Source: Candidatus Cloacimonadaceae bacterium
Lineage (GTDB): Bacteria > Cloacimonadota > Cloacimonadia > Cloacimonadales > Cloacimonadaceae
Reading direction: 5' to 3'
Assembly: GCA_963667535.2 (NCBI GenBank)
Contig: CAXXDU010000002.1
Location: 655,243 to 719,242 of the forward strand
Length of the DNA stretch: 64,000 nt
How positions within the stretch are numbered: the first letter of the stretch is position 1; each line of letters begins with the position of its first letter. The notes beneath the pieces are model-generated. The model saw nothing but the letters and a program-made list of their open reading frames with translations. It did not search any database and was not told the origin of the DNA. Both the position numbers and the translations under genes were made by a program. This document shows positions 10,853 through 45,181 of this stretch, one piece after another.

Positions 10853-11567
10853 TATATTTATAATTGCTAAAAAGGAAATGAGAACTTACCTCAATTCTGT
10901 TTCCACCTATATAGTGTTCGTCGTTTTTCTGCTTATAAGTGGCTGGTTCTTTTCCACTCTGATGTTCAAAGCCGGGAAAGCAGAGCTGAGACAGCTTTTT
11001 ACGATTTTACATATGGTTTACCTATTCTTTATTCCTGCTTTAACTATGGGTATGGTGGCAAAAGAAAAGGCAAGTAAGACGATTGAATTGCTTGCCACAC
11101 TTCCGATTAAATTAAGGGCAATAGTCTGGGGTAAATTTGCTGCTGCCGTTGGGTTGCTTGTCATGATATTGCTTTTCACATTAGTACATTTGTTAACTGT
11201 GATGGTAATCGGTGAGAATATTGATTTCGGTTCAATCCTTTGCGGATATCTGGGTTTGACACTAATCGGAGCAGCATATTGTGCAATCGGGATTTTTGCT
11301 TCAACCTTACAAGGTAATCAGATTTTGGCTTTTATCATCGGATTTGTCATATCACTCTTCTTTTTTGTTCTTCAGTACATTATTGTGCTGATACCAACCT
11401 CACTTGCAGGATTCTTTCAGATTCTGAGCTTTGATTATCATTTACAGAATTTTCTCAGAGGTGTAATCGATACACGAGATGTAATCTATCTGGGTTCAAT
11501 CATTGTTGGCTTTATGCTCCTGGCGGAATTTATTTTGAAACTGAACAACAGGATGCAGGAGCGCTAA
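10845..11567 (+). CDS. gldF: ABC-2 type permease, GldF-like
   Basis: 240 aa with 6 hydrophobic segments. 8-nt overlap with the ATPase gene. Confidence 0.7.
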   Translation: MRDIFIIAKKEMRTYLNSVSTYIVFVVFLLISGWFFSTLMFKAGKAELRQLFTILHMVYLFFIPALTMGMVAKEKASKTIELLATLPIKLRAIVWGKFAAAVGLLVMILLFTLVHLLTVMVIGENIDFGSILCGYLGLTLIGAAYCAIGIFASTLQGNQILAFIIGFVISLFFFVLQYIIVLIPTSLAGFFQILSFDYHLQNFLRGVIDTRDVIYLGSIIVGFMLLAEFILKLNNRMQER

Positions 11568-11568
11568 G

Positions 11569-13272
11569 ATGGAAAACAAAATCATGAAGCAAATGCCCGA
11601 AACCCAGAAAAAAGCCAAAACACGTTCCATCTTTACAGGACTGATGCTGTCGATAGCTCTGTTGGTAATCCTAAATCTGCTATCTTCTTTCTTCTTCTAT
11701 AGATTGGATTTATCTAAAGGGAAGATTCATACATTAAGCAAAACCAGCAAAAATCTGGTTCGTAAACTCAATGACAACGTTGTTGTAAAAGTATATTTAT
11801 CAGGTAATCTGCCTCCGGATTATAGCACACTTGCCCGTTATACCAAAGATATTCTGGGAGAATATAAACAATACGGAGGAAACCGGTTTCGTTATGAAAT
11901 AGTCAGCACCGCTAACGAAGATGAATTCAGCGGAGATGCTACACGTAGCAACGTCTTTGCCCAACGGGTCATGATTCTGGAAAATGATCAGCAAACAGTT
12001 CGCGATATTTATATGGGCTTAGCATTTGAATATAAAGGAAACAGAGAGACTCTAAACCTGACCAAGGACATTGAAGGCAGGATGGAATATGAAATTACTG
12101 CTATTATCAGGCGATTGACCAAAGTCACTTTGCCCAAGGTAAGTGTATTTCAGGATTCTCTGTATAATGCTGAGTATTACCGCTATTTTGAACACCATAT
12201 CAACCAAAACTACAAGATTATCCCTACGGATTTGACTAATCCTGATATGTCGGCTAAAGTGCTCATTTTCCCCGGTGTGGTTGATTCGCTTTCTGCCCTT
12301 CAACTGTTCAATCTTGACCAATACATCATGCATGGTGGCAGTGTGCTGATGTTGCAGGACAGGGTCTTTGGCCTGGTGCAATATAATACTGCTGAGGAAA
12401 TCCACTCAAATCTGTTTAAGTTCATTGAACAGTATGGCGTTGAGATAAAGCCAAATCTGGTTATGGATCAATCCTGCGCACCTATTAATATGAGCCAGCG
12501 TTCAGGAATTTATGTAATAGATGTACCAATGCCTTTTCCTCCAATACCATTAATCCAGGGTATGAAATCATCAGTTATCAGCCGTGGTTTATCTGACATT
12601 CTGCTGTATCTGTGCTCAGAGATAAATCTGAAACCTCGGGTAAAGGGTATAACGATAACACCTTTGCTACAGACTTCATCCAATTCCGGTATCATGCAGG
12701 GACCTACTTTTGATATTAGCCCTGAGAAATTTTTGGGACAGAAACTGATGTCTACTCTTATGGCTCCGCCGATAACTGTTTCAGCATTGTATTCAGGCAC
12801 TTTCACAAGCTATTTTGCCAGGATACCTTCCATTGTTTCCACTCCGGGTTTCGTAGCACAGACTAATAAAAGCGAAATCATCGTAGTTACTGATTCTGAT
12901 TTTATCAGGGATTTCATTTCCAGCGCATCAAGCTCCAACCTGATGTTTCTGCTAAATGCAGTTGACTATCTGCTCAAAGATGTATCTTTGAGTGAAGTGC
13001 GTTCCAGAACCATTCTTAATAGTCCTTTGGAAATAAACCGCTGGTTGTACAGACTTGAGATTTCTCCTGACCGTATTCCGCAAATTGAACCTACTATCAA
13101 AAAAATTGTTAAAGGTATAAATCTGATTATTCCTTCTCTTCTTCTCATCCTGCTTGGAATCAGACGTTTCTTTAAACTAAAGAAAGCACGCCGTGCAATT
13201 CAGAACCGCTTCAGTATAAACAAACAGGAAGTAAAAGCAACTGAAGAGGCTGAAGAGGAGAAGCCTGCATGA
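11569..13272 (+). CDS. gldG: GldG-like ABC-transporter auxiliary protein
   Basis: N- and C-terminal TM anchors. N-terminal region FFYRLDLSKGKIHTLSKTSKNLVRKLNDNVVVKVYLSGNLP matches the ABC_transp_aux/GldG pattern. Confidence 0.7.
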   Translation: MENKIMKQMPETQKKAKTRSIFTGLMLSIALLVILNLLSSFFFYRLDLSKGKIHTLSKTSKNLVRKLNDNVVVKVYLSGNLPPDYSTLARYTKDILGEYKQYGGNRFRYEIVSTANEDEFSGDATRSNVFAQRVMILENDQQTVRDIYMGLAFEYKGNRETLNLTKDIEGRMEYEITAIIRRLTKVTLPKVSVFQDSLYNAEYYRYFEHHINQNYKIIPTDLTNPDMSAKVLIFPGVVDSLSALQLFNLDQYIMHGGSVLMLQDRVFGLVQYNTAEEIHSNLFKFIEQYGVEIKPNLVMDQSCAPINMSQRSGIYVIDVPMPFPPIPLIQGMKSSVISRGLSDILLYLCSEINLKPRVKGITITPLLQTSSNSGIMQGPTFDISPEKFLGQKLMSTLMAPPITVSALYSGTFTSYFARIPSIVSTPGFVAQTNKSEIIVVTDSDFIRDFISSASSSNLMFLLNAVDYLLKDVSLSEVRSRTILNSPLEINRWLYRLEISPDRIPQIEPTIKKIVKGINLIIPSLLLILLGIRRFFKLKKARRAIQNRFSINKQEVKATEEAEEEKPA

Positions 13273-14237
13273 AGAAAAGCCATTGGATAACCCTGATTGT
13301 GGTGGTTCTATTGGTTGGGATATACTTTATTGCCAGAAACAAACAGCCTGTAGAAAGGGAATTACGTTTCTTCAAAGCAGATTCATCTGCAATTGGAAAG
13401 CTTGAATTTATCACTACTGAAGATACTGTCATCGTTCAGAAGAAGGGAAATAGCTGGCAATTGACTTACCCACTGGTATGGGATGTAAGCGAACAGCAGC
13501 TAAGTTCCTTTTTTAGCCAGATTTTGCCAATCCAAACTTCCACGACTCCGATGTCAGAAGACAAGAATCTGCAAAGGATGTATAAAGTAGATGAAGCAGG
13601 AGCTGTGCAGGTTAAAACATATGATAAATCAGGAAAACTCATTGACCATGTCTATATAGGCAATGGGACTGAAACATCTTTTGATTATGGCAGAAAACAG
13701 GGAGATAACAAAATCTACCAATTCAAGACTAATATTACCAATGTAGTTAACCCTGATATATTTCAATGGCGCTCTCCCAATATCACCAATCTCAAGTTTC
13801 AGCAAATTGACCATATTAATGTCGAATATACTAAAAATGCATATACTCTTACTACCGTTGGTGACAGCATCAGATATACTGATAAAAAAGAGAGCTTTAT
13901 GATTCCCATCTACAACAGAGCTCAGTACAAGATCGTCAATGCTCTGGAAAACCTGATGACCTGGCAATTTATGGATAAAGATACTGAACAATATGCTAAA
14001 GCATTTCAAAATCCTGATTGCAGGATAACGGTATATCTGAAAAACAAAAGTACTAAGACTTTTTCTCTGATACATGTAAAAACTGCAGTCACTGAAATTC
14101 TTCCCAACGGACAGCCGAATGATGTGATAATTCTCATGATGATAGATAACAAACTCACTCCTCTTTACCAAATGACGGGGGATTTTATTAACAGGTTCAC
14201 TCGTTCTGCCAATCATTTTAAAGTAGAAAATGAATAA
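13269..14237 (+). CDS. DUF4340-like membrane-anchored protein
   Basis: N-terminal TM. 4-nt overlap with the gldG-like gene, the usual DUF4340 position. Confidence 0.5.
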   Translation: MKKSHWITLIVVVLLVGIYFIARNKQPVERELRFFKADSSAIGKLEFITTEDTVIVQKKGNSWQLTYPLVWDVSEQQLSSFFSQILPIQTSTTPMSEDKNLQRMYKVDEAGAVQVKTYDKSGKLIDHVYIGNGTETSFDYGRKQGDNKIYQFKTNITNVVNPDIFQWRSPNITNLKFQQIDHINVEYTKNAYTLTTVGDSIRYTDKKESFMIPIYNRAQYKIVNALENLMTWQFMDKDTEQYAKAFQNPDCRITVYLKNKSTKTFSLIHVKTAVTEILPNGQPNDVIILMMIDNKLTPLYQMTGDFINRFTRSANHFKVENE

Positions 14238-20786: not shown

Positions 20787-21198
20787 GCTTCCACCTGTAG
20801 GTAAATTTATGCATTTGAGTATTCAGAATATCTATATTCTCTTATCTGTCAATGAATTTAAACTACTCAATCTTTGCTGTATGTGTCTTGCCAATCAGCA
20901 CTTCAACTCTCTTCCAAACATTGTTTATGAAGCATTGCAAAAGATAGGGTAAAGATGTTTACTAAATATTACACAAGAGGTATTATGAATTGGTAAAAGT
21001 ACTATACTGTTGGTCAATATATCGACCCTAATAGCTCAGATATACGAGAATTTTGAACCAGAACCATAGAATGACGAAATGTGCCAGCTTGCTATTCAAG
21101 TATTTGTCCAAATAGAATCAGATATTTATCTTGCCTTTTTTTAGTACTTTGGTACATTGCATGCATTAACAATACTGAGACATCCAAAGGGAGAAATT

Positions 21199-23772
21199 AT
21201 GCGGAAGTTAATCCTTTTAGCGCTGGCGTTTTTGCCGGTTATTCTGTTTTCAGCTTATATGGAAAACCTGCCTACTCAGGTTACTCAACCGGACGGAACA
21301 ATCCTCAATCTGCTGGCAAGCGGAGATGAATTTGCCAACCGGCTGCATGATGCCAATGGCTATACAATTATCCAGAGTAAGACAGATGGATATTATTATT
21401 ATGCGCAGAAGAACGGGGATGACCTTTTGCCATCTGTCTGGAGGGTCGATAGCACTAATCCTACCGGCAGAAACCTGACACCCAATCTGAATATTTCCGA
21501 AGCTGCTTACAAAGAGAAAGCCAGGCTCAGTAGATTACATGATAATCCTGACGTGCGTACTCCTCAGACAGGTAATGTGAATAATCTCTGTGTGCTTATC
21601 CGTTTTTCTGATCAGACAGAGTTTGACATTCCGCGTTCTGCTTATGAATACAAGTTTAATGCACTAGGCGACAGCGTAAATTCACAACGTAACTACTTTA
21701 GTAAAGTCAGCAACAACCAATTGGATATTTTAACAAGTATTTATCCAGGCAGTGCTTCAGAAACGAATCTCTCCTATATGGATAGTCACCCGAGAGCGTA
21801 TTATATGCCTTACAATTCTGTTACTAACCCCATCGGCTATACTGATGAAAACAGTTACGAACGGGAACAGATACTGTTGTCGAATGCAATCAATGCCATA
21901 TCTCCTCAGATTCCCACTTCTTTAAATATCGATGCTGATAATGACAATTGGGTTGATAATGTCTGCTTTATAATCAGAGGACCGCACACAGCCTGGGCTG
22001 ATTTGCTCTGGGGACATTTCTCAGGTTTTTATTATAGTGAAACCTACATCAATGGAAAGCAGGTCGGTGGTTATACCTTCCAGACTGAAGACCAAAATGA
22101 AGTCAGAACCTTGTGTCACGAGATGTTTCATTCCATCGGTTCTCCTGATCTTTATCACTATAACTTTAACGGAGTTGCACCAGTGGGAAGCTGGGACATT
22201 ATGGATTGCGGAAAAGGTCACATGGGCTCTTATATGAAATGGGCTTATGGTGGATGGTTACCTTTTATTGAAGAAATCTGGGCAACAGGAGATTATACTC
22301 TGTCCCCGATTTCCAGTGAAACCGGAGTAAATTGCTATAAAATTAACGTTACAGGGCATCCGAATGAATTCTTCGTTCTGGAATACAGAAAGAAAGGCAG
22401 TGATTACTTTGAACAGTTCGTACCTGATTCAGGGCTTCTGATTTATCGTATCTACACTCCCGAAACCGGTAATGCTGAGGGACCACCCGATGAGGTTTAT
22501 CTATACCGTCCCAATGGAACTTCTTTAATCAATGGACAGGTAGTAGAAGCTGCCTTTAGCCAGAATAACTACAGAACTGAATTTAACGATTATACAAATC
22601 CCAATAGCGTCTGGACTAATAACACACTGGCACATCTGAATATCAGCAATATCAGCTACTGTGGTGAAACCATATCCTTTCATTATGCAAATAACAGCAC
22701 AAATCTGCCACCTCTGGTTAACATCACTTCTCCAACTGACGGAGCTGTGCTTCCTGCCGGGACTCTGAATCTTACCGCTACAGCCTCTGCACAAAATGCT
22801 ACAATTACCAGTGTAGTATTCTATATGGATGAAAACTTTCTGGGTGAAGACAACGAAGCACCATATTCTTTAACCTGGACTGACAGCACAGGAACACCGG
22901 GTTATCATGAACTGATTGTGACTGCCACTGCCAGCAACGGCTTGTATGTATCAAAGCATTCACGTTTCAGAATCATAGACACAATGCAGCCTAACTGGTT
23001 TACCTGGACCACTGATACCCCATTCTATGAGCCATACGGACGCGGGTTTTTACCTATTCAGGTGGCAGTTGATTTGGATTTGGGTTTGGAAGAATATGTG
23101 GCTAAAAAACTTGCTTTTTACATAACTGACGACCCTTATGGTGACCCAACTGTTCCGGGCATGGTATCTGCAACCATAAACCGCTTTTCCAATGGCATCA
23201 TCACATCTGAAGTACTGCTGGATATTGGAGAAATCATGTGCCCTATGGATGGCAGATTTGAAATGGATATTTATAATCCCACCATTTTGAACAACCAGAT
23301 AGCAGTGGTAATCAATCTCTTTGAATATCAGAATATCATGTTTGATATGAATGGTATTTCCGGACATAGCTGGCTGACAGAGCCATTACGCCCCTGGACT
23401 GATGCTTTGGGCAGAGGTATGATTGGAGCAGCCGAGATTGCACTTCAATTGCAGAATCCTTATGTCGGAACAGAAGACCCTGTTACTACAGTACCTCAAC
23501 TAAAACTAACTAATTTTCCCAATCCCTTCAATCCCAGTACCACATTATCTTATAATCTACCCAAAGACGGGAATGCCAGTCTGGTGATTTACAATCTGAA
23601 AGGACAAAAGGTGAAAACGCTTCTGAACGGAAAACAAACCAAAGGGAATCATGAATTTACCTGGAAAGGCACAGATGATAATGGCAATACAGTGGGAAGC
23701 GGAATTTATTTAGTAAGGTTGTTAACCAATGGTAAAGCTCGCATGACGAGGAAGATGGTACTCAGTAAATAG
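21199..23772 (+). CDS. M6-family-like zinc metalloprotease with Ig-like domain and T9SS sorting domain
   Basis: HEMFHSIGSPDLYH (HExxH). N-terminal QPDGTILNLLASGDEFANRLHDANGYTII resembles the M6 metalloprotease domain. C-terminus FPNPFNPSTTLSYNL...LVIYNLKGQKVKTL...SGIYLVRL. Start at ATG 21199 after AAAGGGAG. Confidence 0.75.
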   Translation: MRKLILLALAFLPVILFSAYMENLPTQVTQPDGTILNLLASGDEFANRLHDANGYTIIQSKTDGYYYYAQKNGDDLLPSVWRVDSTNPTGRNLTPNLNISEAAYKEKARLSRLHDNPDVRTPQTGNVNNLCVLIRFSDQTEFDIPRSAYEYKFNALGDSVNSQRNYFSKVSNNQLDILTSIYPGSASETNLSYMDSHPRAYYMPYNSVTNPIGYTDENSYEREQILLSNAINAISPQIPTSLNIDADNDNWVDNVCFIIRGPHTAWADLLWGHFSGFYYSETYINGKQVGGYTFQTEDQNEVRTLCHEMFHSIGSPDLYHYNFNGVAPVGSWDIMDCGKGHMGSYMKWAYGGWLPFIEEIWATGDYTLSPISSETGVNCYKINVTGHPNEFFVLEYRKKGSDYFEQFVPDSGLLIYRIYTPETGNAEGPPDEVYLYRPNGTSLINGQVVEAAFSQNNYRTEFNDYTNPNSVWTNNTLAHLNISNISYCGETISFHYANNSTNLPPLVNITSPTDGAVLPAGTLNLTATASAQNATITSVVFYMDENFLGEDNEAPYSLTWTDSTGTPGYHELIVTATASNGLYVSKHSRFRIIDTMQPNWFTWTTDTPFYEPYGRGFLPIQVAVDLDLGLEEYVAKKLAFYITDDPYGDPTVPGMVSATINRFSNGIITSEVLLDIGEIMCPMDGRFEMDIYNPTILNNQIAVVINLFEYQNIMFDMNGISGHSWLTEPLRPWTDALGRGMIGAAEIALQLQNPYVGTEDPVTTVPQLKLTNFPNPFNPSTTLSYNLPKDGNASLVIYNLKGQKVKTLLNGKQTKGNHEFTWKGTDDNGNTVGSGIYLVRLLTNGKARMTRKMVLSK

Positions 23773-29340: not shown

Positions 29341-32300
29341 TTATAGTTTCGACCATTCCGGGAATTCCTCATTGTTTAGGATGTTGTCAACAATATCCGA
29401 TAAATACTCTGGGATCTCTAGAGAGTTACTTTGTTTTGCTTTTTTGATTTTCTCAGCAGTAGTTTTTGCTAATGACCTTAATTCAGGATGACCAAGGGCT
29501 AGCTTGATATGGTCACCATAATGGTCTTTCCCATATGTTTGTTTAATTCTCTGTATTACTTCTGATTTCCAGTTTTCAAGGATACTTTTACATACACCTA
29601 TAATTATTGTGGGTTTTGATAGGTAACAGTATAAAGTGCATGTAATATTGCAGCGATTTCTACTATTCCAGTTGCGAATATTATCTAAGCTGCAAGATTC
29701 CCAACTTTGAATATTGTGAAACGGTATTTTTAGTAAATTAATATATCGTCTAAAAAATAACTTGTCATTGCGACTAGAGTGAAAATCATCAAATATTTTA
29801 TCAACAATTTCTATAATAAAATCAGGATATTTATCCTCTGATCCATAACAGCTAAGTGAGGTATATACTAATGGCCATGGCTCCATTTGCCAGTTATTAA
29901 GATAATGATCTGCGCTACTTCTCTTTATATGAATATCATCCGCAACAACTAATGCAGATAGTACTACAACTTGTGGTACCACATTATAGAAATTAGGTAC
30001 TGCAAGTACTTCATTAGCTTTAGATTTCCCAAAATTGTTGTCCTTTAAGATATTTAGTGCTGTTGACACAACATCTTGACGTAATTTAACATAGAAATCA
30101 GGTACTGAAAGTACTTCATAAGCCTTAGTTTCAACTATTTCGTCATCTTTTACAATGCTCAATGCTGTCGTCACTATACCAGGAGCAATTCTATTATAGA
30201 ATTCTGGTACCGAAAGAATTTCGTTAGCTTTAACTTTCCCGTTGTCACTATCTTTTACAATGTTCAATGCTGTTGCTACAATATCATTACGAATTTTTAA
30301 ATAGAATTCTGAAACTGCAAGTACTTCATTAGCTTTAACTATTCCTATGTCATCATCTTTTACAATGTTCATTGCTGTCGCAACGATATCATTAGAAATT
30401 TCAGAATAGAATTCTGAAACTGATAGGATATCATTAACTTTAGCTTTCACACTGTCATTATTTTTTAAAATATTCAATGCTGTTGTCACAATATCAGGTG
30501 GGATTTTATAAAAGAATTCTGATACCGAAAGGACTTCATTAGCCTTTACTTTTCCAATGTCATCATCTTTAACAATGTTCAATGTAGTGGTGACGATATC
30601 ATTACGTATTTTTATGTAGAATTCTGATACCGAAAGGATTTCAATAGCCTTTGCTTTTCCAATGTCATCATTTTTTACTATGTTCAATGCAGTCGTAACT
30701 ATATCATTATGTATCTTTATGTAGAATTCTGATACCGAAAGGACTTCAACAGCCTTTGCTTTCCCAACTTCATCATCTTTTACAGTGTTCAATGCTATGG
30801 TTACAATTTCATTTGGTACCTTGTTAAAAAATTCCATTTTCGAAAGTATATTGATAGAATCTTTTCTTATTTCACCAGTAACACACATTTTTACATATCT
30901 TCTCCACAGGACTGGATGATATATATTCACACTATTAAGGACTGCGATATATTTGTATATTTCAATTGCAGTTAAGCCAAGCTTGGGCAAATAAGACAAA
31001 TAATGCGGAACAGTATTTTTTTTATTATAAAATAATTCATCAATATATGCCCGCCTTTCTTTATTATCATTAAATAACTGGGTTTCATATTCAAGGAATG
31101 TTTTCAAAACTATTGATGCTGAGTACTCATCTCCAATATTTGTAATTAAGTTTAACAGCTTCTTCTTTATGATATCAGAATACGGTTGCCAATCATCTAA
31201 TTCAACTTTTGAGAGAACCCGTTCTGCCAAGATGTCATGATTAAAATGAACAAGGCTAATATTGAGGAATTGCTTGTCATTACTATCAAAATTACTTAAA
31301 TTTATGTAACGCTTAAGAATGCTTAATGCTTCATCATCAAAATCCCAATTATGAAAATAGGTGCTTATCTCACTATTACCATTAAAGAAATCTGCAATTT
31401 TTAAAAAAGTGTCATAACTTATAAATATCTTATGATCAGCGTAAACACAACTCCAATAATGCAAGGCTTTTGCGAAACCTAATAATGCACTCTCTATAGA
31501 TTGATATTTTGTCATTTGCTTAAAATCATATCTAGCTATTTTTCTAACTGTGTTTTCTAGACTGTTTAGATCTATTTCATTATAATCAATGCGATTTTCA
31601 TTTACTCCCACTATAGCAAATAGAATAAGAAATAGAGATGTATGATAGCTACTACGATCTTTTAAAACTCTATCTGAAGCATCCTTCCATTCTGGATAGT
31701 TTTCAAGTATTTGCTCAATTATTTTTTGATTTTCACTTTCCATTAGTTCGAATATGTTATCCCGATTGTATAAATAAAGCAGATAGCTTTTTCCAGATAT
31801 ATCTCTATCACCAATCACCAATCTCATATTACTAATGGACTGCGATTGTTTCAACAGAGCTTCGCCCAAAAATTTATTGTCAATTCCGACAAGTCTATAC
31901 CAATCTTCAACGAAAACCAAATATTTATTATCAATATCAGATTGAATTATATTTAATGAGTTATCTAAAAACATGCTAAGCTGAAAATCTTGTACCCATA
32001 TTACAACAAAGTCAGATTCTTCAGATAGCTCTATAGCCAATCTACGTAATAATGTGGATTTACCACAGCCACCAGTTCCATATACTATAGCAGCAACTTT
32101 GTCTATTGTGTATTTGTCGAAAGCCTTTAACACTTCAAGCTTCAATTTAGGGTATAAACCCCTTCCAATATCAAAGTTATTTAAAACTCCAAACCATTGG
32201 CAGTTATCATCTTGTTTAGCTGAATAAAACTTAGCTTTGGTAAATTGTGTCCCGTTTTTAATCTTATCCATAAACCCATGGTCAATGGTAAGTGCGCCAG

Positions 32301-33156
32301 CAAGGTTTATTTCGATGATTTTATTCCGGTTATCTTTTAGAAACTGAAGGAATAACTCAGTTCCTAACTTTCCATTATTATCTTCGAGTTTTATAAAAGT
32401 ATAATCGTTATTATAAAACTCGGGTTTTTCTTTTACATCATCATTATATAAATCAAAATGGAATATTTTGATATTATTTCTTTTTAATCCTGCAAAGAAT
32501 TTGGAAAAAACTACCTGTTCGTTGAACTGAGTTCCGACAATGATTAAATTTTTTCCACTGTCATTTACGTTACCATAAAGTACATTAAAGCAATTGTGCA
32601 TGCTATTGTATAACTTTCCATAAGATGAAGACGTAAATACGATTTGGTCAATTGATTGAAATCCATCTATGGTTCCATGAATATGGTAAATGCAGCTTTC
32701 ATGCTCACCTGTTGATTTATCTGGATATGATATAATTGGATACTTTATAGTTCGAGACTTATCTTTTATTACTTCTAAAACATTATCGAAATTAAAAGTA
32801 AAAATATTGTACCAATTGGGAGTCAATAAATTTGCATACAGTAGATAATTAAATTTGCTTTTGTCTACTTTAAAAAGATTACAAAATGCCACTAATAAGC
32901 TGCTGTCATCTCTGATTAATCTTTCCCAGATTGCAGCGGCAGCTTCGTATGTCTCTACCTTTTTTTTGAACTTATCGTTTGTATGCGATACAAATTGCTT
33001 CGATGTCGGGATTGACTCAAATTCGGTACTTTGATTTTGAATACCATAACTGAATCCAGCACCCAAAATGAGGATGTATTCACCCTTTTTTAATCCTTCG
33101 AAGAAATCGGCATCACTAGCTAATTCTAACAGGGTTTTTTCTTTAATTCCGATCAT
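29341..33156 (-). CDS. SIR2-like domain, P-loop NTPase and 9 x 35-aa repeat protein (candidate STAND-type antiviral NADase)
   Basis: SIR2_2-type motifs in order: ILILGAGFSYG (aa 27-37), FTFNFDNVLE (119-128), IYHIHGT (156-162) and LIIVGTQFNEQ (204-214). Walker A GTGGCGKST (aa 360-368, nt 32053-32079) and Walker-B-like LVFVEDW (413-419). Tandem repeats at aa 771-1085. The gene is markedly AT-rich. Confidence 0.8.
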   Translation of the reverse strand: MIGIKEKTLLELASDADFFEGLKKGEYILILGAGFSYGIQNQSTEFESIPTSKQFVSHTNDKFKKKVETYEAAAAIWERLIRDDSSLLVAFCNLFKVDKSKFNYLLYANLLTPNWYNIFTFNFDNVLEVIKDKSRTIKYPIISYPDKSTGEHESCIYHIHGTIDGFQSIDQIVFTSSSYGKLYNSMHNCFNVLYGNVNDSGKNLIIVGTQFNEQVVFSKFFAGLKRNNIKIFHFDLYNDDVKEKPEFYNNDYTFIKLEDNNGKLGTELFLQFLKDNRNKIIEINLAGALTIDHGFMDKIKNGTQFTKAKFYSAKQDDNCQWFGVLNNFDIGRGLYPKLKLEVLKAFDKYTIDKVAAIVYGTGGCGKSTLLRRLAIELSEESDFVVIWVQDFQLSMFLDNSLNIIQSDIDNKYLVFVEDWYRLVGIDNKFLGEALLKQSQSISNMRLVIGDRDISGKSYLLYLYNRDNIFELMESENQKIIEQILENYPEWKDASDRVLKDRSSYHTSLFLILFAIVGVNENRIDYNEIDLNSLENTVRKIARYDFKQMTKYQSIESALLGFAKALHYWSCVYADHKIFISYDTFLKIADFFNGNSEISTYFHNWDFDDEALSILKRYINLSNFDSNDKQFLNISLVHFNHDILAERVLSKVELDDWQPYSDIIKKKLLNLITNIGDEYSASIVLKTFLEYETQLFNDNKERRAYIDELFYNKKNTVPHYLSYLPKLGLTAIEIYKYIAVLNSVNIYHPVLWRRYVKMCVTGEIRKDSINILSKMEFFNKVPNEIVTIALNTVKDDEVGKAKAVEVLSVSEFYIKIHNDIVTTALNIVKNDDIGKAKAIEILSVSEFYIKIRNDIVTTTLNIVKDDDIGKVKANEVLSVSEFFYKIPPDIVTTALNILKNNDSVKAKVNDILSVSEFYSEISNDIVATAMNIVKDDDIGIVKANEVLAVSEFYLKIRNDIVATALNIVKDSDNGKVKANEILSVPEFYNRIAPGIVTTALSIVKDDEIVETKAYEVLSVPDFYVKLRQDVVSTALNILKDNNFGKSKANEVLAVPNFYNVVPQVVVLSALVVADDIHIKRSSADHYLNNWQMEPWPLVYTSLSCYGSEDKYPDFIIEIVDKIFDDFHSSRNDKLFFRRYINLLKIPFHNIQSWESCSLDNIRNWNSRNRCNITCTLYCYLSKPTIIIGVCKSILENWKSEVIQRIKQTYGKDHYGDHIKLALGHPELRSLAKTTAEKIKKAKQSNSLEIPEYLSDIVDNILNNEEFPEWSKL
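29902..30846 (-). repeat. Nine head-to-tail 105-bp (35-aa) coding repeats
   Basis: Consensus LSVSEFYxKIxNDIVTTALNIVKDDDIGKxKAxEV. Register checked at nt 30741 (repeat 2 start) and nt 29901 (first residue after the array). Confidence 0.95.
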
Positions 33157-33859
33157 GCGAATTTTAGCAATGTGCCATGATTTGATTGTAAACGCGAGTT
33201 AATTTTTGAAAGAAATTAAAATCTGATGTACTTTGTTTGACATCAATTATCATTAGTCAACCTTATATATTTACTTATTAATTCTATAGCAACAAGTATT
33301 CCCATTTTGTCAATCAATTATTCTTGTACTCATTCTCTATACAGGTTAATAACAGCATCACCAATATTGCGCATCTAGTCAAAATAAATTTATAAAAATG
33401 ATGTTCTACTTTTAAAGAAAAGAATAATCATCCTCTCTCCTTATTGCATGATTACTTGCTGTTGGGTAAACGCTGGGACTTTCCCTGGTTACCTGACTAA
33501 GGAAAGTCCAGGCAGTGTACCTTCAATAAGCCAGATTAGCCTAACAGCTTATTAGGTTTATTGAAGAATTATAAATTATCAATTATAAATTATGAATTGG
33601 TTGCTGGTGTCTTTCAATCACGAATTACTAATTAAGAATTACAAATTAACTGAGGTGATAAGGTGATATGGTTGACTCCATAACGTTCCCCTCTTATCTC
33701 TTAAACGATCCGTTGGATATTGGTGAGAGATGTAAGGGGTATATAAGGGCTTTTGCCTTAGATACCCCTTAGAAACCCCTTTGATATCTGTAGGATCTAT
33801 TAACCAATGAATAATTAAGAGAAAAAGTACTACAGACACTCATGTCTGTCCGTGGAAAA

Positions 33860-34168
33860 ATGTAGTTCTGCCTTCAGGCAGGTTTATAGACTTAGACATC
33901 GATATATATGATTCAGACCTGCATAAAAAGGTTGTGTGAAAAAGCCAAAGGAAGAGCATTGCCGGAGTTCAATTTGCCCTCTTTAGCTTTCAGCATGCAT
34001 CTTTGTGTTTGGGCAAATCGGACTTCGGAATGCGTTATCTGTAAAGGTTTTAGCTGAAGTCCGAAATTCCCTTTTACCTTCCTTACTATATTTCAAATGA
34101 CGAGGGAATTTTGAACTCCAGCTATTCGCTTATTCATTTTCGCACAGTCTCTAAATGCAGAACTACAT
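33860..34168. repeat. 309-bp element with 12-nt terminal inverted repeats (REPIN/MITE-like)
   Basis: ATGTAGTTCTGC at 33860-33871 and its reverse complement at 34157-34168. Partial second copy at 3411-3557. Confidence 0.7.
33964..34119. other. Predicted perfect four-way junction (cloverleaf-like) of unknown function
   Basis: Helix A 33964-33972/34111-34119, B 33973-33979/34011-34017, C 34019-34026/34056-34063, D 34064-34071/34104-34111. Loops of 31, 29 and 32 nt, with 0-1 unpaired nt at the junction. Confidence 0.55.
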
Positions 34169-34643
34169 ATTCTTCGTATAATATAAGTAATCAGTCTTAC
34201 TATTATCTTAGTAGCCCCTTGGTAGATGATTACTACTTTTAGTAAGCATCTACCAGGAGAGTATTCATATATAAGCAGTTACGATTACTTGTAGTTTTAA
34301 GTGGAAAGGTGGAACAGTGGAACGATGTCTGTATCACAGAAGACACGGAAAAGAAAGCTAGCCAATTCATAATTTGCACCTTCGTTGCTTGTTTCCTGCT
34401 TATTCAATCCGCAGGAGCAAGGGCAGAGATACACGGCTCATATACGGGTCGCACCCGTAGATGAGCCGTTTATCACCAGTGCATCTCTTGTGTATCCTAT
34501 AAGGAATGAATTAGTAATCTAAGAGAATGAAATGGTCTTGCTACTCTTTCTGTAAATTAGATACATCGGTAAAGAGAAAATCCTTGACTCTATTGAACAT
34601 AGATTAATTAAGTAAAATCGAATATTGTCCATGAGAGGAATTT

Positions 34644-35328: not shown

Positions 35329-36456
35329 TTATTCAAATATCCGGAGATATGCTCCGAATTTGTAAACTCTTTTCCAGTTCTTGCCGGTCATTTCTTCCAG
35401 AATACCCAATTTCTGAAAGTCATTGATTAAACCATAAGCAGATACGAGAGACAGAGAGGTAATTTCTGAAACATCAGCAGGGGTAACAACCGGCTTACTG
35501 AATAAGTAATTAAGCAGTTTCTGACCTGAGAGTAATTTTTTTCCCAGATTTGGCAATAACTCTGATTCGCAGATTTTCTTCAATTCCAGAATGTTTTTTA
35601 TGCCGTCTATAGCTTTTTGACAGGTTTGACTCACACCGATTAAGAAAAAAGCCAGCCAGCCATGCAAATCCTGAGCTGTTCTGGTTCTATTCAAATAGTC
35701 ATAGTATAGAGCCCGATTGGTTTCGAAATACTCTGATAAATACAAGGCAGGCTTGTTTATCAATCCATCGGAAATGAGATATAAAACAATCATTAATCTA
35801 CCGATTCTTCCGTTTCCATCCAGGAAAGGATGGATAGTTTCGAACTGGTAATGAGCAATGGCAATCTTGATTAAATGTGATAGACCGGTTTTTTCATTAT
35901 GCAGAAACTTTTCCAAATCACTCATCAGTCTTTCAACTTCATAACCCGGAGGTGGTACAAACATAGCGGTTTTAATAGTTGAGCCGCCAATCCAATTCTG
36001 GCTTTTACGATATTCTCCGGGGTTTTTATGCTCGCCTCTGACCCCTTGCAAAAGTATTCCGTGAGCATTTCTCAATAATCTGGTGGATAGAGGCAAAGTG
36101 CGAAGCATATTTATACTCTCATTCATCGCTTGTATATAGTTTTGAACTTCCTTCCAGTCGTCACGACGTTCAAAAGCAATGTTCATTTCCGATAGCATAG
36201 CTTCTTCCATGTTAGTTTTTGTGCCTTCGATTTTGCTGGACAACGTAGCTTCTTTAACTACGTGTAACATGATAAAGTGGTCAATATCGGGAACCAACTC
36301 ACTATAAGCCTTTAGCTCTCCCAGCTTGAGATTTGCAGTCTCATTTAATTGCATCAGTTCAGCATTCTCAAACCTGTAACAACGGTTTATTGTATTAGGT
36401 GTAAATGCTTGATAATCATCGATTTTAACATACTTGCCTGCATTGAAATCCTTCAT
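35329..36456 (-). CDS. Fic-family protein (class II, intramolecular inhibitory helix)
   Basis: Fic motif HPFLDGNGRIGR (aa 209-220, nt 35797-35832). N-terminal inhibitory motif SSKIEG ((S/T)xxxE(G/N)). C-terminal wHTH-like tail. Confidence 0.9.
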   Translation of the reverse strand: MKDFNAGKYVKIDDYQAFTPNTINRCYRFENAELMQLNETANLKLGELKAYSELVPDIDHFIMLHVVKEATLSSKIEGTKTNMEEAMLSEMNIAFERRDDWKEVQNYIQAMNESINMLRTLPLSTRLLRNAHGILLQGVRGEHKNPGEYRKSQNWIGGSTIKTAMFVPPPGYEVERLMSDLEKFLHNEKTGLSHLIKIAIAHYQFETIHPFLDGNGRIGRLMIVLYLISDGLINKPALYLSEYFETNRALYYDYLNRTRTAQDLHGWLAFFLIGVSQTCQKAIDGIKNILELKKICESELLPNLGKKLLSGQKLLNYLFSKPVVTPADVSEITSLSLVSAYGLINDFQKLGILEEMTGKNWKRVYKFGAYLRIFE

Positions 36457-36691: not shown

Positions 36692-38524
36692 TTACTTCAT
36701 CAGCAGCATTTTCCTGGTGATATTGATGTTCTTGCCCTGCATTTGGTACAGATAGATACCGGGGCTGACGTTCTTATCATGCTTATCTTTCCCGTTCCAG
36801 GTTGCATTATAGTGTCCGGCTGCTTTCATTTCATTGACGAGTGTTTTAACCAATTGTCCTTTCAGGTTATAGATATTGATGGTTACAGGCTGGTTTTCTT
36901 TAACGTCGTAAGCAATACTGGTTTCCCGATGGAACGGATTGGGATAGTTATTGAGCAGTTCTGAGCTGATGGCAGGAACTTCGGTTGGATTACTGACGCC
37001 ATCGATAAAATGGAAAGTGGTCTTGGGCATAGACTGATAAGCATGGTCCAGTGCAGGTGGCGAAGCGGGGTTAATGTCGTCGGTACTTCTGCCTGCTAAC
37101 AAAGAGCTATTATAGTCTGCCGAAGTCAATCCAAAGAATAAATTATTAGGACTATGTCCTGTATCAGACCCAGGCTTATACACCATTACGACTAAGTTTT
37201 GTCCTGAATAAGTAAACGGTGTGTCTAATGGTATGCAAATTACATGCTCTCCTGCCAGATAATTTACCGTACCATCAAAGACCTGAGTAAGCTGAGTGGA
37301 TGGTATCCAGGTAACAGGTAAACTATCCAGAACTGTGGTTCCCATCCAAATCCGGGTAGGCACATCAAAGACATTACCCCAGAAATGATTATAATATGAA
37401 ATGGCATTAATAGTGCCCAAATGATTAATTGCTGAAGCACGATACAGGATTTCTCCAAGACTTGAATATTCAAACACTATTGAGGGCTCTACGGTCAATT
37501 GCGTTGAATCAGCGAGAGTAACGGGTGTAGTCGAGGCAGGAAATACTGCCACGCTAATACTGTCTGTCACGTTATTTCCGGGGACTTCATCATTCAAACC
37601 AATAACTTCAGCGCGTAAAAGATGGGTACCGATAGTCGCAGGAGTCCAGGATAAAGAAGCGGTTGCATAGCCATCATTGGCAGCGATAGGAGGTCCTGTC
37701 GTCGTGGCAAGGACATTTGTGCCTTCCATCAGGTTAATTGTGTAATTATCGTCCGGAGCTGTGCCATGATTGTTTACTGTCACAGTTAATGTGCCGGCTT
37801 CATTCTGAACCAGAGATGGCGGACAGTTTATGGACTCTCCAATCAAATCATGAGCAGGTAACTGTGCCGGTAAAAACGAGAAAATCGTGTTTTCCCCCGG
37901 GTAGGTGCTATTACTATTGTAATTGTCAGTGCTGGATACAGTTAATGTGGGCAGCAATCTTACACTCAAATAATTTCCAACGCCTCCGGGCTCCATGTTT
38001 ATCCCGATACTGGCTCCTCTACCGCTGGAATCATCTCCGCCACCCGGTCCGTAACAAAAGTCTATCTGTCCTGATTCATATAATTTTACCTGAAAATCGT
38101 ATGCACTGGTCAAATAAGGATAGATACACCAGTTCATATCTGTGAATTGGACAGTAAATACCCGATTAGGCGCACTACCTGAAAGCACATACATACATTG
38201 AGTTGTAAACCGCCAATTATCCCATAACGGTGCTAGTATAGGATGATATACGTTGAAATTAAGATTATTACTGGAAAGATGATTTAACGCAAGATTGAAA
38301 TAAACGTAGCCGTAATAGCTTATCCTGAGCTGCGTATAGATATTTTCTCCATAATGAAATGGAAAGCCGATATCCACAGGATTGTTGATGGTGTCTACAA
38401 CTGTTCCGTTTATCGGAATATATGTTTGTATGCGGGATTGAAAAGTGTAATATTGATTGATATCAGCCGACAACGTCCCACATAACATAATCAAAAACAT
38501 AAGAAAAAGCAGCAATGCTTTCAT
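36692..38524 (-). CDS. Secreted protein with CARDB-like domain and T9SS sorting domain
   Basis: Signal peptide MKALLLFLMFLIMLCGTLSA after GGAGG. CARDB-like GTLTVTVNNHGTAPDDNYTINLMEG. C-terminus YPNPFHRETSIAYDV...INIYNLKGQLVKTL...PGIYLYQM. Confidence 0.8.
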   Translation of the reverse strand: MKALLLFLMFLIMLCGTLSADINQYYTFQSRIQTYIPINGTVVDTINNPVDIGFPFHYGENIYTQLRISYYGYVYFNLALNHLSSNNLNFNVYHPILAPLWDNWRFTTQCMYVLSGSAPNRVFTVQFTDMNWCIYPYLTSAYDFQVKLYESGQIDFCYGPGGGDDSSGRGASIGINMEPGGVGNYLSVRLLPTLTVSSTDNYNSNSTYPGENTIFSFLPAQLPAHDLIGESINCPPSLVQNEAGTLTVTVNNHGTAPDDNYTINLMEGTNVLATTTGPPIAANDGYATASLSWTPATIGTHLLRAEVIGLNDEVPGNNVTDSISVAVFPASTTPVTLADSTQLTVEPSIVFEYSSLGEILYRASAINHLGTINAISYYNHFWGNVFDVPTRIWMGTTVLDSLPVTWIPSTQLTQVFDGTVNYLAGEHVICIPLDTPFTYSGQNLVVMVYKPGSDTGHSPNNLFFGLTSADYNSSLLAGRSTDDINPASPPALDHAYQSMPKTTFHFIDGVSNPTEVPAISSELLNNYPNPFHRETSIAYDVKENQPVTINIYNLKGQLVKTLVNEMKAAGHYNATWNGKDKHDKNVSPGIYLYQMQGKNINITRKMLLMK

Positions 38525-38650
38525 GTGTCCTCCACTATTATAATCCTTCATTTACATTTGAGTTGGATACATATATTCGGAAGATAATACCAGGATAAAT
38601 CAAGATAAATCAAAATATACTGATTATAGATATTCTGTCAAAGTCTTTTT

Positions 38651-42226: not shown

Positions 42227-42349
42227 CTTTGAAAACCCGATAAATATTTGCAGATAAAATAAAACAATTTGAATATTAGTTTGATTCTCTTTCGGAATGG
42301 TTATTGCTATTTAAATATTTCCTATTCGATTCATATACGGAGGAAAGAA

Positions 42350-45181
42350 ATGGTCAAGCGAAGTATTATTTGGGTTTTAGTTTTGTTTTTCGTAACGGCG
42401 CTCTTTGCAGAAATCGGGACTGCAGAGACGATTTCCGACTTTACCAATTCCATCCAGTTTGGTGGTCGACAGGCTGTTTATGCTAATGGCGATACGATAC
42501 AACTGTGTTATGTAAAACATTTATCAATGTATCCGGTAACTGTCAATGGCGGACACACATATTTTGCTTCATCTTATGATGGGGGTCTGACTTTTCCAAT
42601 TAACAGGACAATTGGTGTTACACCGGATGGCGCACCTACTTTATGCAAAAGCGGACAGACCATCATTGTTACTTTTACCAGCGGTGGGTATTTATTTAGG
42701 GCAGTATCTAATGATAATGGGGTAACTTTTCATTATGAGCCCCCGTATCCTGAGCCGGAATTCCCCAATATTCCCGCCAGTGACAGATTACCCATAACGG
42801 ACATGCATGACGGTGAATTTCACAGCATATATGCCAACAAGGAATACACACCGGATTTTTATAAACTGGAAGAACCCTTTTCACAGTTTTACGGAAGGTT
42901 CACTGCTCATGACAAAACGAGCAATGACACACCTGCCTATTACTGGGGACCGGATGTAATTGAAGGCACTGTCAGAGTCAATGGTGATTTGTGGATTAAA
43001 CAATTGGGTGGAGGCACCAATAACGGCTGGCCCACGTTTAAGGGTCCAGTGTATGTTTCAGGTCAGATTCAATCATACAGCGGCACTCCGCCTTATTTGC
43101 AGGTATTCCGGGGAGATTATTTGGAACATGTTCCGGAAGTAGCGTTAAATCCGGAAATCACGCCAGCTAATATAACAACAATCGGACCGGCTGATAATGA
43201 CCCCAACCGGATCATGATGGTAACCGTTAATGGAAATTCTTATACAACCATGATTGGACAAATATTAACCACCGGAGTAGATACATTGTGGGTTTATACA
43301 GATTATCCTACCACAAGCGGAACACCACTTTATGCAAACGTTGTGCCGCATGTGGATACACTTTGGACAGTAGGTCCGGCAGGTGTTTGCAGTAATAACA
43401 CCATGAAGGTGAATTCCACACTTTGGATAAAGGGTAATTTCAGTGGTAAACAGGTATGGTATTCATCGGATAATGTATATCTGATTGATGATATCACGTT
43501 AAGCGGTACACCGGTGGGAGATTGTCCTGACGGCACTGTTTCCGTAAGCAGTTATAATGCCTTTGATAAAGTGGCTATTGTCTCCGGCAAAAACATCATC
43601 ATCAAATATGGTTACAAAGACCCGGTTACGAATATCAGAATGAAACCAAACTGCAATGATATCTGGATTTATGCCAGCCTTTATGCATTGGGAGAAGGTA
43701 ATGGAAATGTTCATGAAGATGGAGTCTTCACTTTTGAGTATCAGCATCCGCATCCCTCTGTTCCCGCTGTGACAATGGCTGATTCGCTCTTTGATAATAT
43801 CGATATGCATAGAAGACCTTTCCCTCAAACCGGTATAAGTCCCTGGCCCGGCAATATTGACTATCCCTATTACAATCCACTCTGGCCGGAAGGAAATCCA
43901 ACCATGGAGCGTGGTACAGTGCACGTTTGGGGCTCCATTACCCAGCGCAGACGCGGATTTATGCACAGAGGTTTAGCTGATGCAGATTACCCCAATCCAG
44001 TCGGTTCATGGAATCCTGCCATTGATTATTGTGGAGGTCCTGCCGGAAATGCTTACGCCGACCCTGTCTTGAATACCGTTTTTACTCCGGTAAACGCTGC
44101 CGGTGCTACCGGAGCAGGCGTAGGCTATAATAAGGATATCCACTTCGATTCCAGAATCAGAAGCGAAACCTTCGGTTTTAACCCCTGGAATTTTGGATTA
44201 ACGGTCGCCTATATCACAGAAACCGGAACCTGGCAGACGGAAACTGTAAAGTATGATAACATCGATATGGTAACCAAAGCTTATAACCGCAAAAATGCCC
44301 ATACCCTCTTCTCCGTTAATGACAGATTGTATCAGTATCAGAATAACGTGATTTCTGATTTCCCAATCCTGAATGAGCCTAAAGGCAATATCGTTCAGCT
44401 CAATCATCTGGATACAGAACATGCTTTGATTCAGATGCACGATAAAGACATAAATTTCTATAATTATTTAACAGCAACTCCGGATTCTATTCACGTGTTT
44501 TGCTTAGATTTGGATAATGGAGTGGCAGCTCCGGTTCTGGATAGCTATGTGCCTACGGAAATGAATGATATTGCTGTTTTGAATAATGGCTTAAAGATAT
44601 ATGCCCAAACCAATGACCTTGATGAAGTGGTCTTCTATTCAATCAATAGCAACAACCAAATGAGCCAGTTGTATACCTGGAATCCCAATCAACCTGCTCT
44701 GAATGGGGCAACTTACAATTTTTCCAGAGCAAGGCTGCATATCGTTCCTTCGGGGATTGATTCCTTTTATGTGTTTATCTGGGTGCCCTTTAATGTACTC
44801 AATAATCCCCTGCTCCCTATTTTAACTAATGGCACCATGTATATGGCGCGGGGTTCTTTAGCCAATACCGGCATTGACGATGATCAGTTGGTATCCATCC
44901 CTGAGCTGATACCATCAGTTTTCATTAGCCCCAATCCGTTCAGAAGCCTTACAACCCTTGCTGTAAATCTGCCCAAAAACAGTAATCTGGATATGAAAAT
45001 CTATAACATCAAAGGTGAACTGATTAAATCCTTCAAAAATGAATATAAGAACCTGGGAACGCATAAGCTGACCTGGGATGGAAGAGACAATCAAGGCAAG
45101 GCTGTATCCTCCGGTATTTACTATTACCGTTGCGAAACAGACAATAATCATCTGACGGGGAAAATGGTGTTGCTCAAATAA
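42350..45181 (+). CDS. Large secreted protein of unknown function with T9SS sorting domain
   Basis: Start ATG 42350 after GGAGG with signal peptide MVKRSIIWVLVLFFVTALFA. C-terminus ISPNPFRSLTTLAVNL...MKIYNIKGELIKSF...SGIYYYRC. Confidence 0.75.
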   Translation: MVKRSIIWVLVLFFVTALFAEIGTAETISDFTNSIQFGGRQAVYANGDTIQLCYVKHLSMYPVTVNGGHTYFASSYDGGLTFPINRTIGVTPDGAPTLCKSGQTIIVTFTSGGYLFRAVSNDNGVTFHYEPPYPEPEFPNIPASDRLPITDMHDGEFHSIYANKEYTPDFYKLEEPFSQFYGRFTAHDKTSNDTPAYYWGPDVIEGTVRVNGDLWIKQLGGGTNNGWPTFKGPVYVSGQIQSYSGTPPYLQVFRGDYLEHVPEVALNPEITPANITTIGPADNDPNRIMMVTVNGNSYTTMIGQILTTGVDTLWVYTDYPTTSGTPLYANVVPHVDTLWTVGPAGVCSNNTMKVNSTLWIKGNFSGKQVWYSSDNVYLIDDITLSGTPVGDCPDGTVSVSSYNAFDKVAIVSGKNIIIKYGYKDPVTNIRMKPNCNDIWIYASLYALGEGNGNVHEDGVFTFEYQHPHPSVPAVTMADSLFDNIDMHRRPFPQTGISPWPGNIDYPYYNPLWPEGNPTMERGTVHVWGSITQRRRGFMHRGLADADYPNPVGSWNPAIDYCGGPAGNAYADPVLNTVFTPVNAAGATGAGVGYNKDIHFDSRIRSETFGFNPWNFGLTVAYITETGTWQTETVKYDNIDMVTKAYNRKNAHTLFSVNDRLYQYQNNVISDFPILNEPKGNIVQLNHLDTEHALIQMHDKDINFYNYLTATPDSIHVFCLDLDNGVAAPVLDSYVPTEMNDIAVLNNGLKIYAQTNDLDEVVFYSINSNNQMSQLYTWNPNQPALNGATYNFSRARLHIVPSGIDSFYVFIWVPFNVLNNPLLPILTNGTMYMARGSLANTGIDDDQLVSIPELIPSVFISPNPFRSLTTLAVNLPKNSNLDMKIYNIKGELIKSFKNEYKNLGTHKLTWDGRDNQGKAVSSGIYYYRCETDNNHLTGKMVLLK

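Follow-up and report, generated by a model that had tools for sequence, protein, structure and literature searches.

The window, a 64,000-nucleotide stretch of contig CAXXDU010000002.1 (positions 655,243 to 719,242 of assembly GCA_963667535.2, Candidatus Cloacimonadaceae bacterium), encodes a 1271-amino-acid (aa) protein, P0001, in which nine phased 35-aa repeats are embedded between a nucleoside triphosphatase (NTPase) domain and a conserved C-terminal cap. We propose, with a probability of about 0.68, that these repeats form the central part of the C-terminal solenoid sensor arm (aa ~700-1271) of a single-gene defence protein of the STAND (signal transduction ATPases with numerous domains) type that resembles NLRs (NOD-like receptors). 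The array would most likely serve as the ligand sensor of an Avs-like abortive-infection NADase; the defence role, the NADase activity, the binding of a ligand by the array and the nature of that ligand are all inferred from analogy with characterised systems. P0001 belongs to a known kind, that of NLR-like STAND proteins with a repeat sensor, although its own clade is uncharacterised and rare.

The original prediction, made from the letters of the sequence, described nine phased 105-bp coding repeats without spacer, and its coordinates, register and unit boundaries at 30741 and 29901 were all correct. The units run head-to-tail from window position 30846 down to 29902 (aa 771-1085) as 9 x 105 nt with zero indels, and the eight pentapeptides listed earlier for unit positions 8-12 are those of units 1-8. 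BLOSUM autocorrelation of the protein at a period of 35 reached 651.5, compared to a mean of 24.4 (standard deviation 3.5, maximum 37.5) in 100 protein shuffles, so the nine-unit repeat is real, far beyond chance. Tandem Repeats Finder (TRF) reported a period of 105 with 6.9 copies, 77% matches and a score of 670 over 30091-30813, thus finding only the inner units because the edge units are too diverged for it. The inner units 1-5 are 51-83% identical to each other in protein and 71-89% in DNA, whereas at the protein level the first unit is 29-60% and the last (unit 8) 20-37% identical to the other units. Over all units DNA identity ranges from 46 to 89% and protein identity averages 53%. The array as a whole is acidic, with a net charge of -11 and an isoelectric point (pI) of 4.9.

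An AlphaFold2 model of aa 700-1271, built on a 53-sequence alignment, predicted with high confidence one continuous all-alpha solenoid (predicted local distance difference test (pLDDT) 96.1, predicted template modelling score (pTM) 0.86), in line with the alpha-solenoid that had been anticipated from the repeats. Each unit in the model consists of a 4-residue helical turn (positions 6-9), a 10-residue helix (12-21) and an 11-residue helix (26-36). Residues 1-72 of the model are helical hairpins, so that the last ~70 residues of the region preceding the array (aa 428-770) already lie within the predicted solenoid, and the helical stack carries on through the cap (the last 186 residues), which when modelled alone gave a pLDDT of 95.6. 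Foldseek returned only solenoids for the whole model, namely AP2 alpha, beta-catenin, PPR10, importin-alpha and designed ARM proteins (E about 2e-4, TM 0.17-0.38), and no specific match for the cap alone, with none under E 0.5; the best score of the cap in the ESM Atlas was 0.83, below the level counted as meaningful. In VIA-align, where helical repeats that score under a Z of about 13 may share no more than a common helical arrangement, the best match of the whole model was Pumilio-2 (PUM2; Z 12.3, root-mean-square deviation (rmsd) 8.0 A, 314 residues aligned), below this caution level, followed by Integrator INTS4 (Z 12.2), FBF-2 (Z 11.9), APUM23 (Z 11.8), the HEAT-like YibA (Z 10.4), alphaRep proteins (Z 9.7 and 9.2) and CpcE/F (Z 7.6). 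The cap alone matched best the C-terminal PUF repeats of PUM2, also below the caution level (Z 9.7, rmsd 4.3 A, 154 aligned). The best matches of the predicted fold are therefore Pumilio, ARM and HEAT solenoids, all of them generic and below the caution level.

The class of the repeats was approached through sequence similarity. Pfam repeat models (HEAT, HEAT_2, HEAT_PBS, Arm, PUF, TPR, PPR and Sel1) gave no match to aa 771-1085 at E<=10, and the only Pfam matches to the array at that level were unrelated and sub-threshold, the best being DUF2496 with 23.9 bits versus a cut-off of 25. An exhaustive phmmer search also drew NACHT and NB-ARC proteins with canonical HEAT_2 arrays (P0095, P0121, P0127 and P0071). 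The array of the NACHT protein P0095, a canonical HEAT_2 array in Pfam (E 7.6e-74), aligned with that of P0001 by BLASTP in register over 302 aa (24% identity, E 3e-16, composition-corrected), and P0071 aligned with E 1e-8. When P0095 and P0001 are aligned, HEAT helix A falls on the 10-residue helix, the 'KDxN' turn on K-D-D and the 'V-R-A-N' signature of helix B on V30-K31-A32-N33. On account of this in-register similarity we read the units as HEAT-like repeats that have diverged and have gained a short additional helical turn. A comparison of double-unit profiles of the family and of HEAT by hhalign gave a probability of 0.8%, to which no weight was given, as the units had probably been cut out of phase (92 match columns for 70-aa double units). 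The analogy with PPR, TALE and TPR repeats drawn earlier from the period did not hold, since each unit has three helical elements instead of two, no Pfam repeat model matched, and the only similarity is to HEAT_2-type repeats; membership of PPR, TPR or TALE was accordingly rejected, with no PPR or TPR model matching at E<=10. PPR10 was one of many generic solenoid matches in Foldseek (E 2e-4, TM 0.23-0.26).

P0001 has the tripartite order of STAND/NLR proteins, with effector, NTPase and C-terminal repeat sensor, and the placement of the array C-terminal to a P-loop NTPase, where these proteins carry their sensor, is compatible with the putative role of trigger-recognition domain suggested for it before. 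The N-terminal domain matched SIR2_2 (PF13289) in Pfam above the curated cut-off (E 5e-9, 36.8 bits versus 24.5). D124 of N122-x-D124 (FNFD) and H160 (HIHG) are invariant and N122 is nearly so in 10 relatives; N122/D124 and H160 are putative catalytic residues, by analogy with other SIR2 defence proteins. The NTPase contains both a Walker A and a Walker B-like motif, as expected of a P-loop NTPase: G360, G363, G365 and K366 of the former are invariant across 49 family members, and L413, E417 and D418 of LVFVED, which from general knowledge of P-loop NTPases is presumably the Walker B motif, are invariant in the 10 relatives. The family nSTAND_NTPase5 (PF25199) is assigned to P0001 in precomputed annotation, and nSTAND5 was found in 39 of 40 full-length relatives at E<=1e-6, most of them above 34 bits. 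A profile of the 49 family members gave weak PDB matches to the NACHT modules of NLRC4 (E 0.0016), NAIP5 (NAIP) and NLRP9, besides which it found P-loop-level matches only, and NCBIfam gave no meaningful match to P0001.

We then considered where variation sits within the unit. Across the nine window units the variance in mismatches per column exceeded that of a uniform reshuffling (p about 0.017-0.021), so that variation is unevenly spread, as had been claimed. The blocks assigned earlier were right in outline, with mismatch frequencies of 0.15-0.20 in those called invariant (positions 1-7 and 13-22) and 0.34-0.38 in those called variable (8-12 and 23-33), but wrong in detail, for positions 4 and 16 vary and positions 23, 24, 31 and 32 are conserved (K, D, K and A). 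The most variable columns were 8 and 11, then 27, 30 and 33; positions 9, 12, 13, 16, 25-30 and 33 were intermediate, and L1, F6, V15, A18, L19, K23, D24, K31 and A32 were conserved. At the family level we calculated entropy in 48 arrays, chosen for scores from about 290 upwards and no fewer than 4.5 copies, with weaker arrays left out, after rotating all units to a common 'IVxxAL' frame and dividing by the mean of each array; six of the 48 matched the anchor at only three of four residues, and a few came from other NTPase families. Entropy peaked at the two residues before the 'IVxxAL' core, at 2.13 and 1.99 times the mean, with the next positions at 1.36, 1.35 and 1.31. The 10-residue helix begins with this di-residue, which in the window's array corresponds to unit positions 12-13, mostly N/P/Q and D/E/G/V and without an aromatic or basic stacking residue. 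In a homologue from a Pyrinomonadaceae metagenome-assembled genome (MAG), L002, the nine units carry FG, FG, HQ, NS, FG, FG, HQ, QP and NE at this site while the remainder of the unit is almost invariant.

The array also bears marks of its own history. Each of the nine units is closest to another unit of the same protein (identity 0.37-0.83) rather than to any of 30 units of five relatives (0.32-0.56), and all nine share a 35-aa period including an extra residue, whereas the closest relatives have 34. From these nearest units and the common period we conclude that the array was amplified from, or homogenised to, one founder unit within its own lineage. Pooled dS (synonymous divergence) between the units is about 1.0, with only units 1 and 2 close (89% nt), and therefore the amplification or homogenisation is not recent in this protein. 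The earlier suggestion of concerted evolution or unequal crossing-over thus stands as regards amplification or homogenisation in the own lineage, borne out by nine of nine units, but not as a recent process here. It is recent in L002 (best-segment identity to P0001 51%), in which the nine units have a mean nucleotide identity of 89% and some are identical, and in L010, from a Vulcanimicrobiota MAG. The L010 gene (9452-12532) has five 34-aa units of 96% nucleotide identity, the first four differing only at position 1 (I/L), which indicates a very recent amplification that has as yet no variable site.

Among relatives the tandem array always sits between the helical region and the cap. Its copy number, which had been expected to vary, differs widely, from about 2 (P0003 and P0006) to about 17 (P0010), and its period is 29, 30, 31, 33, 34, 35, 36 or 42 aa, most commonly 34. 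Within a protein the period is constant, with a single spacing in 20 of 25 arrays that were searched again by a hidden Markov model built from each (three of these 25, in P0095, P0121 and P0127, belong to NACHT-HEAT proteins and not to nSTAND5 ones). The family is rare: 16 relatives came out of 5.8 billion clusters in a word-indexed search, the closest 47-51% identical, so that no near-identical strain variant is on record. When aa 700-1271 were compared by phmmer with all 1.84 billion representatives, 165 proteins (clusters) matched at E<=1e-3, of which 106 reached 1e-10 and 30 reached 1e-30. Viral contigs yielded 115 pattern matches, none of them related, and a tblastn search of PLSDB plasmids gave no match. 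The homologues come from Acidobacteriota, several Bacteroidota, Cloacimonadota, Vulcanimicrobiota and one gammaproteobacterium. Effectors are swapped within the family as is typical of STAND defence proteins: among 40 relatives SIR2_2 is found in 14, SMEK_N, Trans_reg_C, PRTase-CE and Trypsin_2 in a single protein each, and the others have unnamed N-termini. The literature search found 'nSTAND5' in no relevant paper; the available portions of Kaur et al. 2021 (PMC8195603) name nSTAND1 and nSTAND2 and not nSTAND5, the repeat-protein survey PMC10392669 makes no mention of STAND, NTPase or SIR2, and in the accessible parts of seven supplements of PMC13581612 the terms nSTAND, SIR2 and HEAT are absent.

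Several observations weigh against this reading of P0001, some bearing on its assignment as a defence protein and others on the array as the recognition surface. The PF25199 score of P0001 in Pfam is 32.2 bits, below the cut-off of 34, and PADLOC defence models gave only a P-loop-level match (mad8, E 0.002). The neighbours in the window are not defence genes except for a Fic gene, and include a GntR/ABC-transporter operon downstream and cargo proteins of the type IX secretion system (T9SS); among the seven homologue loci examined, two (L005 and L008) are without defence or mobile-element neighbours. An alternative consistent with these points is that P0001 is not immune at all but a STAND NTPase with a signalling or housekeeping function, in which the SIR2-like domain is regulatory (deacylase or NAD-sensing) and the repeats bind host partners. 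Fic as the only adjacent possible defence gene, the missing PADLOC family match and one relative with a Trans_reg_C DNA-binding domain in the place of SIR2 all speak for it. We nevertheless give it the smallest weight of the readings considered here, because none of the 60 related genomes searched was found to hold the gene (7 belong to its genus, another 29 to its family and 24 to its order, and 51 are at least 90% complete), because it has a low GC content and is spread patchily across phyla, because effectors are swapped with peptidase, PRTase-CE and SMEK domains, and because five of the seven homologue loci adjoin restriction-modification, abortive infection (Abi), NLR-like, conjugation/integration or transposase genes. 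The gene is single-copy in its own genome (one match), and GC is 0.31-0.33 across 30-34 kb of the window, as it is in the gene together with the 1.5 kb upstream of it that are poor in open reading frames (ORFs), compared to about 0.40 in the flanks. The seven loci share no conserved partner gene; MmeI and AbiTii neighbour the L003 homologue, relaxase, TraG and integrase genes that of L009, and a DDE transposase that of L010.

With respect to the array itself, the pooled ratio of nonsynonymous to synonymous substitution (dN/dS) in the window is 0.24-0.32 overall, 0.50 at positions 8-12, 0.13-0.20 at 13-24 and 0.28-0.36 at 25-30, with no pooled block of unit positions above 1, values that would fit a relaxation of constraint better than an arms race. 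For the di-residue, a class fixed in advance, dN/dS was 5.65 in this window (dS only 0.09, two codons) compared to 0.28 at the other positions, 1.10 versus 0.13 in L002, 1.95 versus 0.40 in L003, 0.72 versus 0.28 in L005 and 2.44 versus 0.24 in L006, all of these resting on two codons per unit and non-independent pairs with no significance test; the ratio was not computable in L008, and L010 is without variation. When adjacent codon pairs were ranked by pN (nonsynonymous differences), the di-residue came 7/35, 1/34, 1/42, 5/34, 3/35 and 5/33 in six arrays, the window's own pair (12-13) ranking only 7/35. The aligned sequences show a family-wide variability hot spot at the di-residue, which falls short of proof of positive selection. 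Furthermore, contigs of four sequencing runs from two studies were identical to the window wherever they covered it and held no variant in copy number or sequence, probably coming from the same strain; two of them, X1 and X3, span the whole gene, and the runs may include the source sample and are uninformative on between-strain variation. A single joint reported in the run contigs, with 20-letter sides and 5793 unrelated letters between them, was judged spurious, and no RNA data set was among the listed holders of the sequence.

Most of the 150 listed phmmer matches cover residues 385-570 of the query, which is the cap, often without repeats. Conservation within the sensor region is thus highest in the cap and not in the array, so that the functional surface could lie on the cap. 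The repeats might then be an adjustable-length spacer, or an autoinhibitory or oligomerisation scaffold, with recognition performed by the cap or the helical region and the variable residues reflecting weak constraint. This fits the proteins P0003 and P0006, which keep the cap with only about 2 repeats, the window's unit positions, of which no block exceeds a dN/dS of 1, and the five near-identical units of L010 without any variable site. A pure spacer, however, would not be expected to focus its variability on one structural site in 48 arrays, or to vary, as L002 does, almost only at the di-residue while the remaining unit has a dN/dS of 0.13; moreover, the repeat region is the sensor of characterised STAND proteins (PMC13581612). 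We thus regard the spacer or scaffold as unlikely and favour the array as part of the sensor.

The hot spot raises a more specific idea, that the arrays are natural modular readers in which the di-residues of the units read successive elements of an extended ligand, either a phage peptide segment or nucleic acid. We consider this very unlikely, but if it were true, gain, loss and shuffling of units would re-programme the specificity of an NLR-like receptor, giving a bacterial counterpart of both the fungal NLR repertoire described below and PUF/TALE-type codes. A still less probable version has the array work in the manner of PUF or TALE proteins, the di-residue and the residue one turn further on reading one unit of RNA, single-stranded DNA or extended peptide. 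PUF repeats are about 36 aa long with three helical elements, the middle one of which carries the base-reading residues at its beginning. The array resembles them in having units of 35-36 residues (about 36 aa) with three helical elements in a curved solenoid, in its perfect phasing and variable copy number, and in a hypervariable di-residue fixed at a helix start, the site of the base-reading residues in PUF; the Pumilio homology domain was also the top structural match of both models, with FBF-2, APUM23, Puf5p and Puf4p listed as well. Against this, the Z-scores lie under the caution level of about 13 for helical repeats, there is no Pfam PUF match at E<=10 and the sequence similarity is to HEAT instead, and unit positions 12-13 of the window's array are without an aromatic or basic stacking residue. 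The surface is acidic and not basic, which is unfavourable for nucleic-acid binding and therefore weighs against a PUF-like reading; it favours a protein ligand over nucleic acid.

As a sensor arm, the solenoid could act as follows. In the resting state, by analogy with Avs and bNACHT proteins, it would keep the NTPase monomeric and inactive. On infection a ligand from the invader, most likely a phage protein, would bind the solenoid and so release NTP-dependent oligomerisation, which would bring the SIR2 domains together, so that NAD+ would be depleted and the infection aborted. Specificity would reside in exposed residues around the place where the 10-residue helix begins (positions 8 and 11-13) and in others along the 11-residue helix, while the hydrophobic and signature residues L1, F6, I14, V15, A18, L19, K23, D24, K31 and A32 would build the fold. 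The array would evolve by amplification or homogenisation of whole units, which would account for a period that is constant within a protein and for periods and copy numbers that differ between proteins.

The closest known system in architecture is Avs5 (AVAST type 5; EfAvs5), which like P0001 is a single polypeptide with an N-terminal SIR2 domain, a central STAND NTPase and a C-terminal sensor. In Avs5-type systems the NADase is switched on when a ligand triggers oligomerisation (PMC11897194, PMC12931631), a logic that P0001 would be expected to share, and the Avs5 sensor reportedly clusters with SAMD9 (PMC13581612). In contrast, the NTPase of P0001 is of the Pfam nSTAND5 type and its sensor is a tandem HEAT-like array, not SAMD9-like, with no SAMD9 entry among the fold matches listed by Foldseek and VIA-align. 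Membership of P0001 in Avs5 was rejected on the different sensor type, on the mad8 match as the only one in PADLOC and on PDB sequence and profile searches that gave P-loop-level matches only; we assume that the PADLOC and PDB libraries contain Avs5.

In its mode of evolution the family resembles fungal NLRs with repeat sensors of high internal conservation (HIC), such as the WD40 sensors of HET-E/HET-D and others of ANK, TPR and HEAT type, with which P0001 shares the NLR architecture. PMC12222747 describes fungal HIC sensors as gaining, losing and homogenising tandem units that contain a few hypervariable positions each. The relatives L002 (89% nt) and L010 (96% nt) are HIC-like, exceeding a unit identity of ~80%, whereas the window array is old (dS about 1; 46-89% nt; mean 53% protein) and lies below it. 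The di-residue ratios of 0.72-5.65, against 0.13-0.40 for the other positions, come from two codons per unit with no significance test and do not establish diversifying selection at hypervariable sites. P0001 also differs from the fungal NLRs in being bacterial, in its NTPase clade and in its repeat type. With respect to the repeats, the nearest likeness is to the bacterial NACHT-HEAT proteins P0095 and P0127, as shown by the 302-aa in-register alignment, where the K-D turns coincide and so do the K/R-A signatures in the second long helix. HEAT_2/PBS-lyase-type repeats (YibA, 1oyz, and alphaRep binders) are among the fold matches of the model; unlike HEAT repeats, the units possess an additional helical turn of 4 residues, after which relatives usually have L-P.

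Among the pattern-recognition receptors of bacteria, STAND/NLR-like proteins form a major class, and the way in which their sensors diversify is still an open question. The family described here shows in bacteria the defining features of the rapidly re-assorting NLR sensors of fungi, namely units in exact phase, a copy number and a period that vary, and a concentration of variability at one structural site, and members such as L002, with nine near-identical units differing in two residues, would offer simple systems for relating a set of repeats to trigger specificity. For the window, what is gained is chiefly a reliable annotation for a 1271-aa gene that defence-system libraries do not recognise.

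Table 1. Features of the P0001 gene in the window.
Feature	Position	Strand	Basis
Whole gene, 1271-aa SIR2 / nSTAND5 NTPase / HEAT-like solenoid protein (P0001)	29341..33156	-	ORF list, translation
SIR2-like (SIR2_2) effector domain core, aa 118-224	32485..32805	-	Pfam PF13289
nSTAND5-type STAND NTPase core, aa 319-427	31876..32202	-	Pfam PF25199
Walker A GTGGCGKS, aa 360-367	32056..32079	-	Sequence
Walker B-like LVFVED, aa 413-418	31903..31920	-	Sequence
Helical region between NTPase and array, aa 428-770	30847..31875	-	Conserved in family alignment
Nine phased 35-aa (105-nt) HEAT-like repeats, aa 771-1085	29902..30846	-	Repeats, model, BLASTP
Conserved C-terminal cap, 186 aa, aa 1086-1271	29344..29901	-	Helical, predicted solenoid continues through cap

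Around the gene, the next one upstream (35329-36456, minus strand) encodes a Fic/DOC-family protein with Fic_N and Fic domains (E 1e-22 and 7e-20), which could have a toxin-like or defence-related function of its own within this low-GC patch. The locus is also surrounded by genes for three large proteins, at 21157-23772, 36692-38551 and 42269-45181, that carry Por_Secre_tail, a sorting domain of type IX secretion, and point to a host among the Bacteroidota. Rfam gave no family in 28-36 kb, and a tRNA scan of the window found none. The ORF-poor stretch at 33157-34643, especially ~33860-34169 and ~33686-33814, is built partly of dispersed repeats: one upstream element of 200-307 bp has at least 13 further copies of 83-90% identity in the same genome, and a second has many copies of 72-87% identity in a genome of the same genus (G004). 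From their sequences these elements look like miniature inverted-repeat transposable elements (MITEs).

At the homologue loci, the closest genomic homologue (L002, 9983-13635) consists of two overlapping frames (9983-10894 and 10777-13635) with a frameshift between the SIR2 and NTPase parts, which could denote a pseudogene or an assembly error, and has a DNA methylase and an HNH endonuclease gene directly upstream. In a Flavobacterium MAG (L006, 14230-20688, minus strand) the homologue lies beside genes for a 2152-aa NACHT protein, a TraG/type IV secretion system (T4SS) coupling protein, ThiF and HD proteins, so that here two NLR-like genes stand side by side on what is probably a conjugative element.

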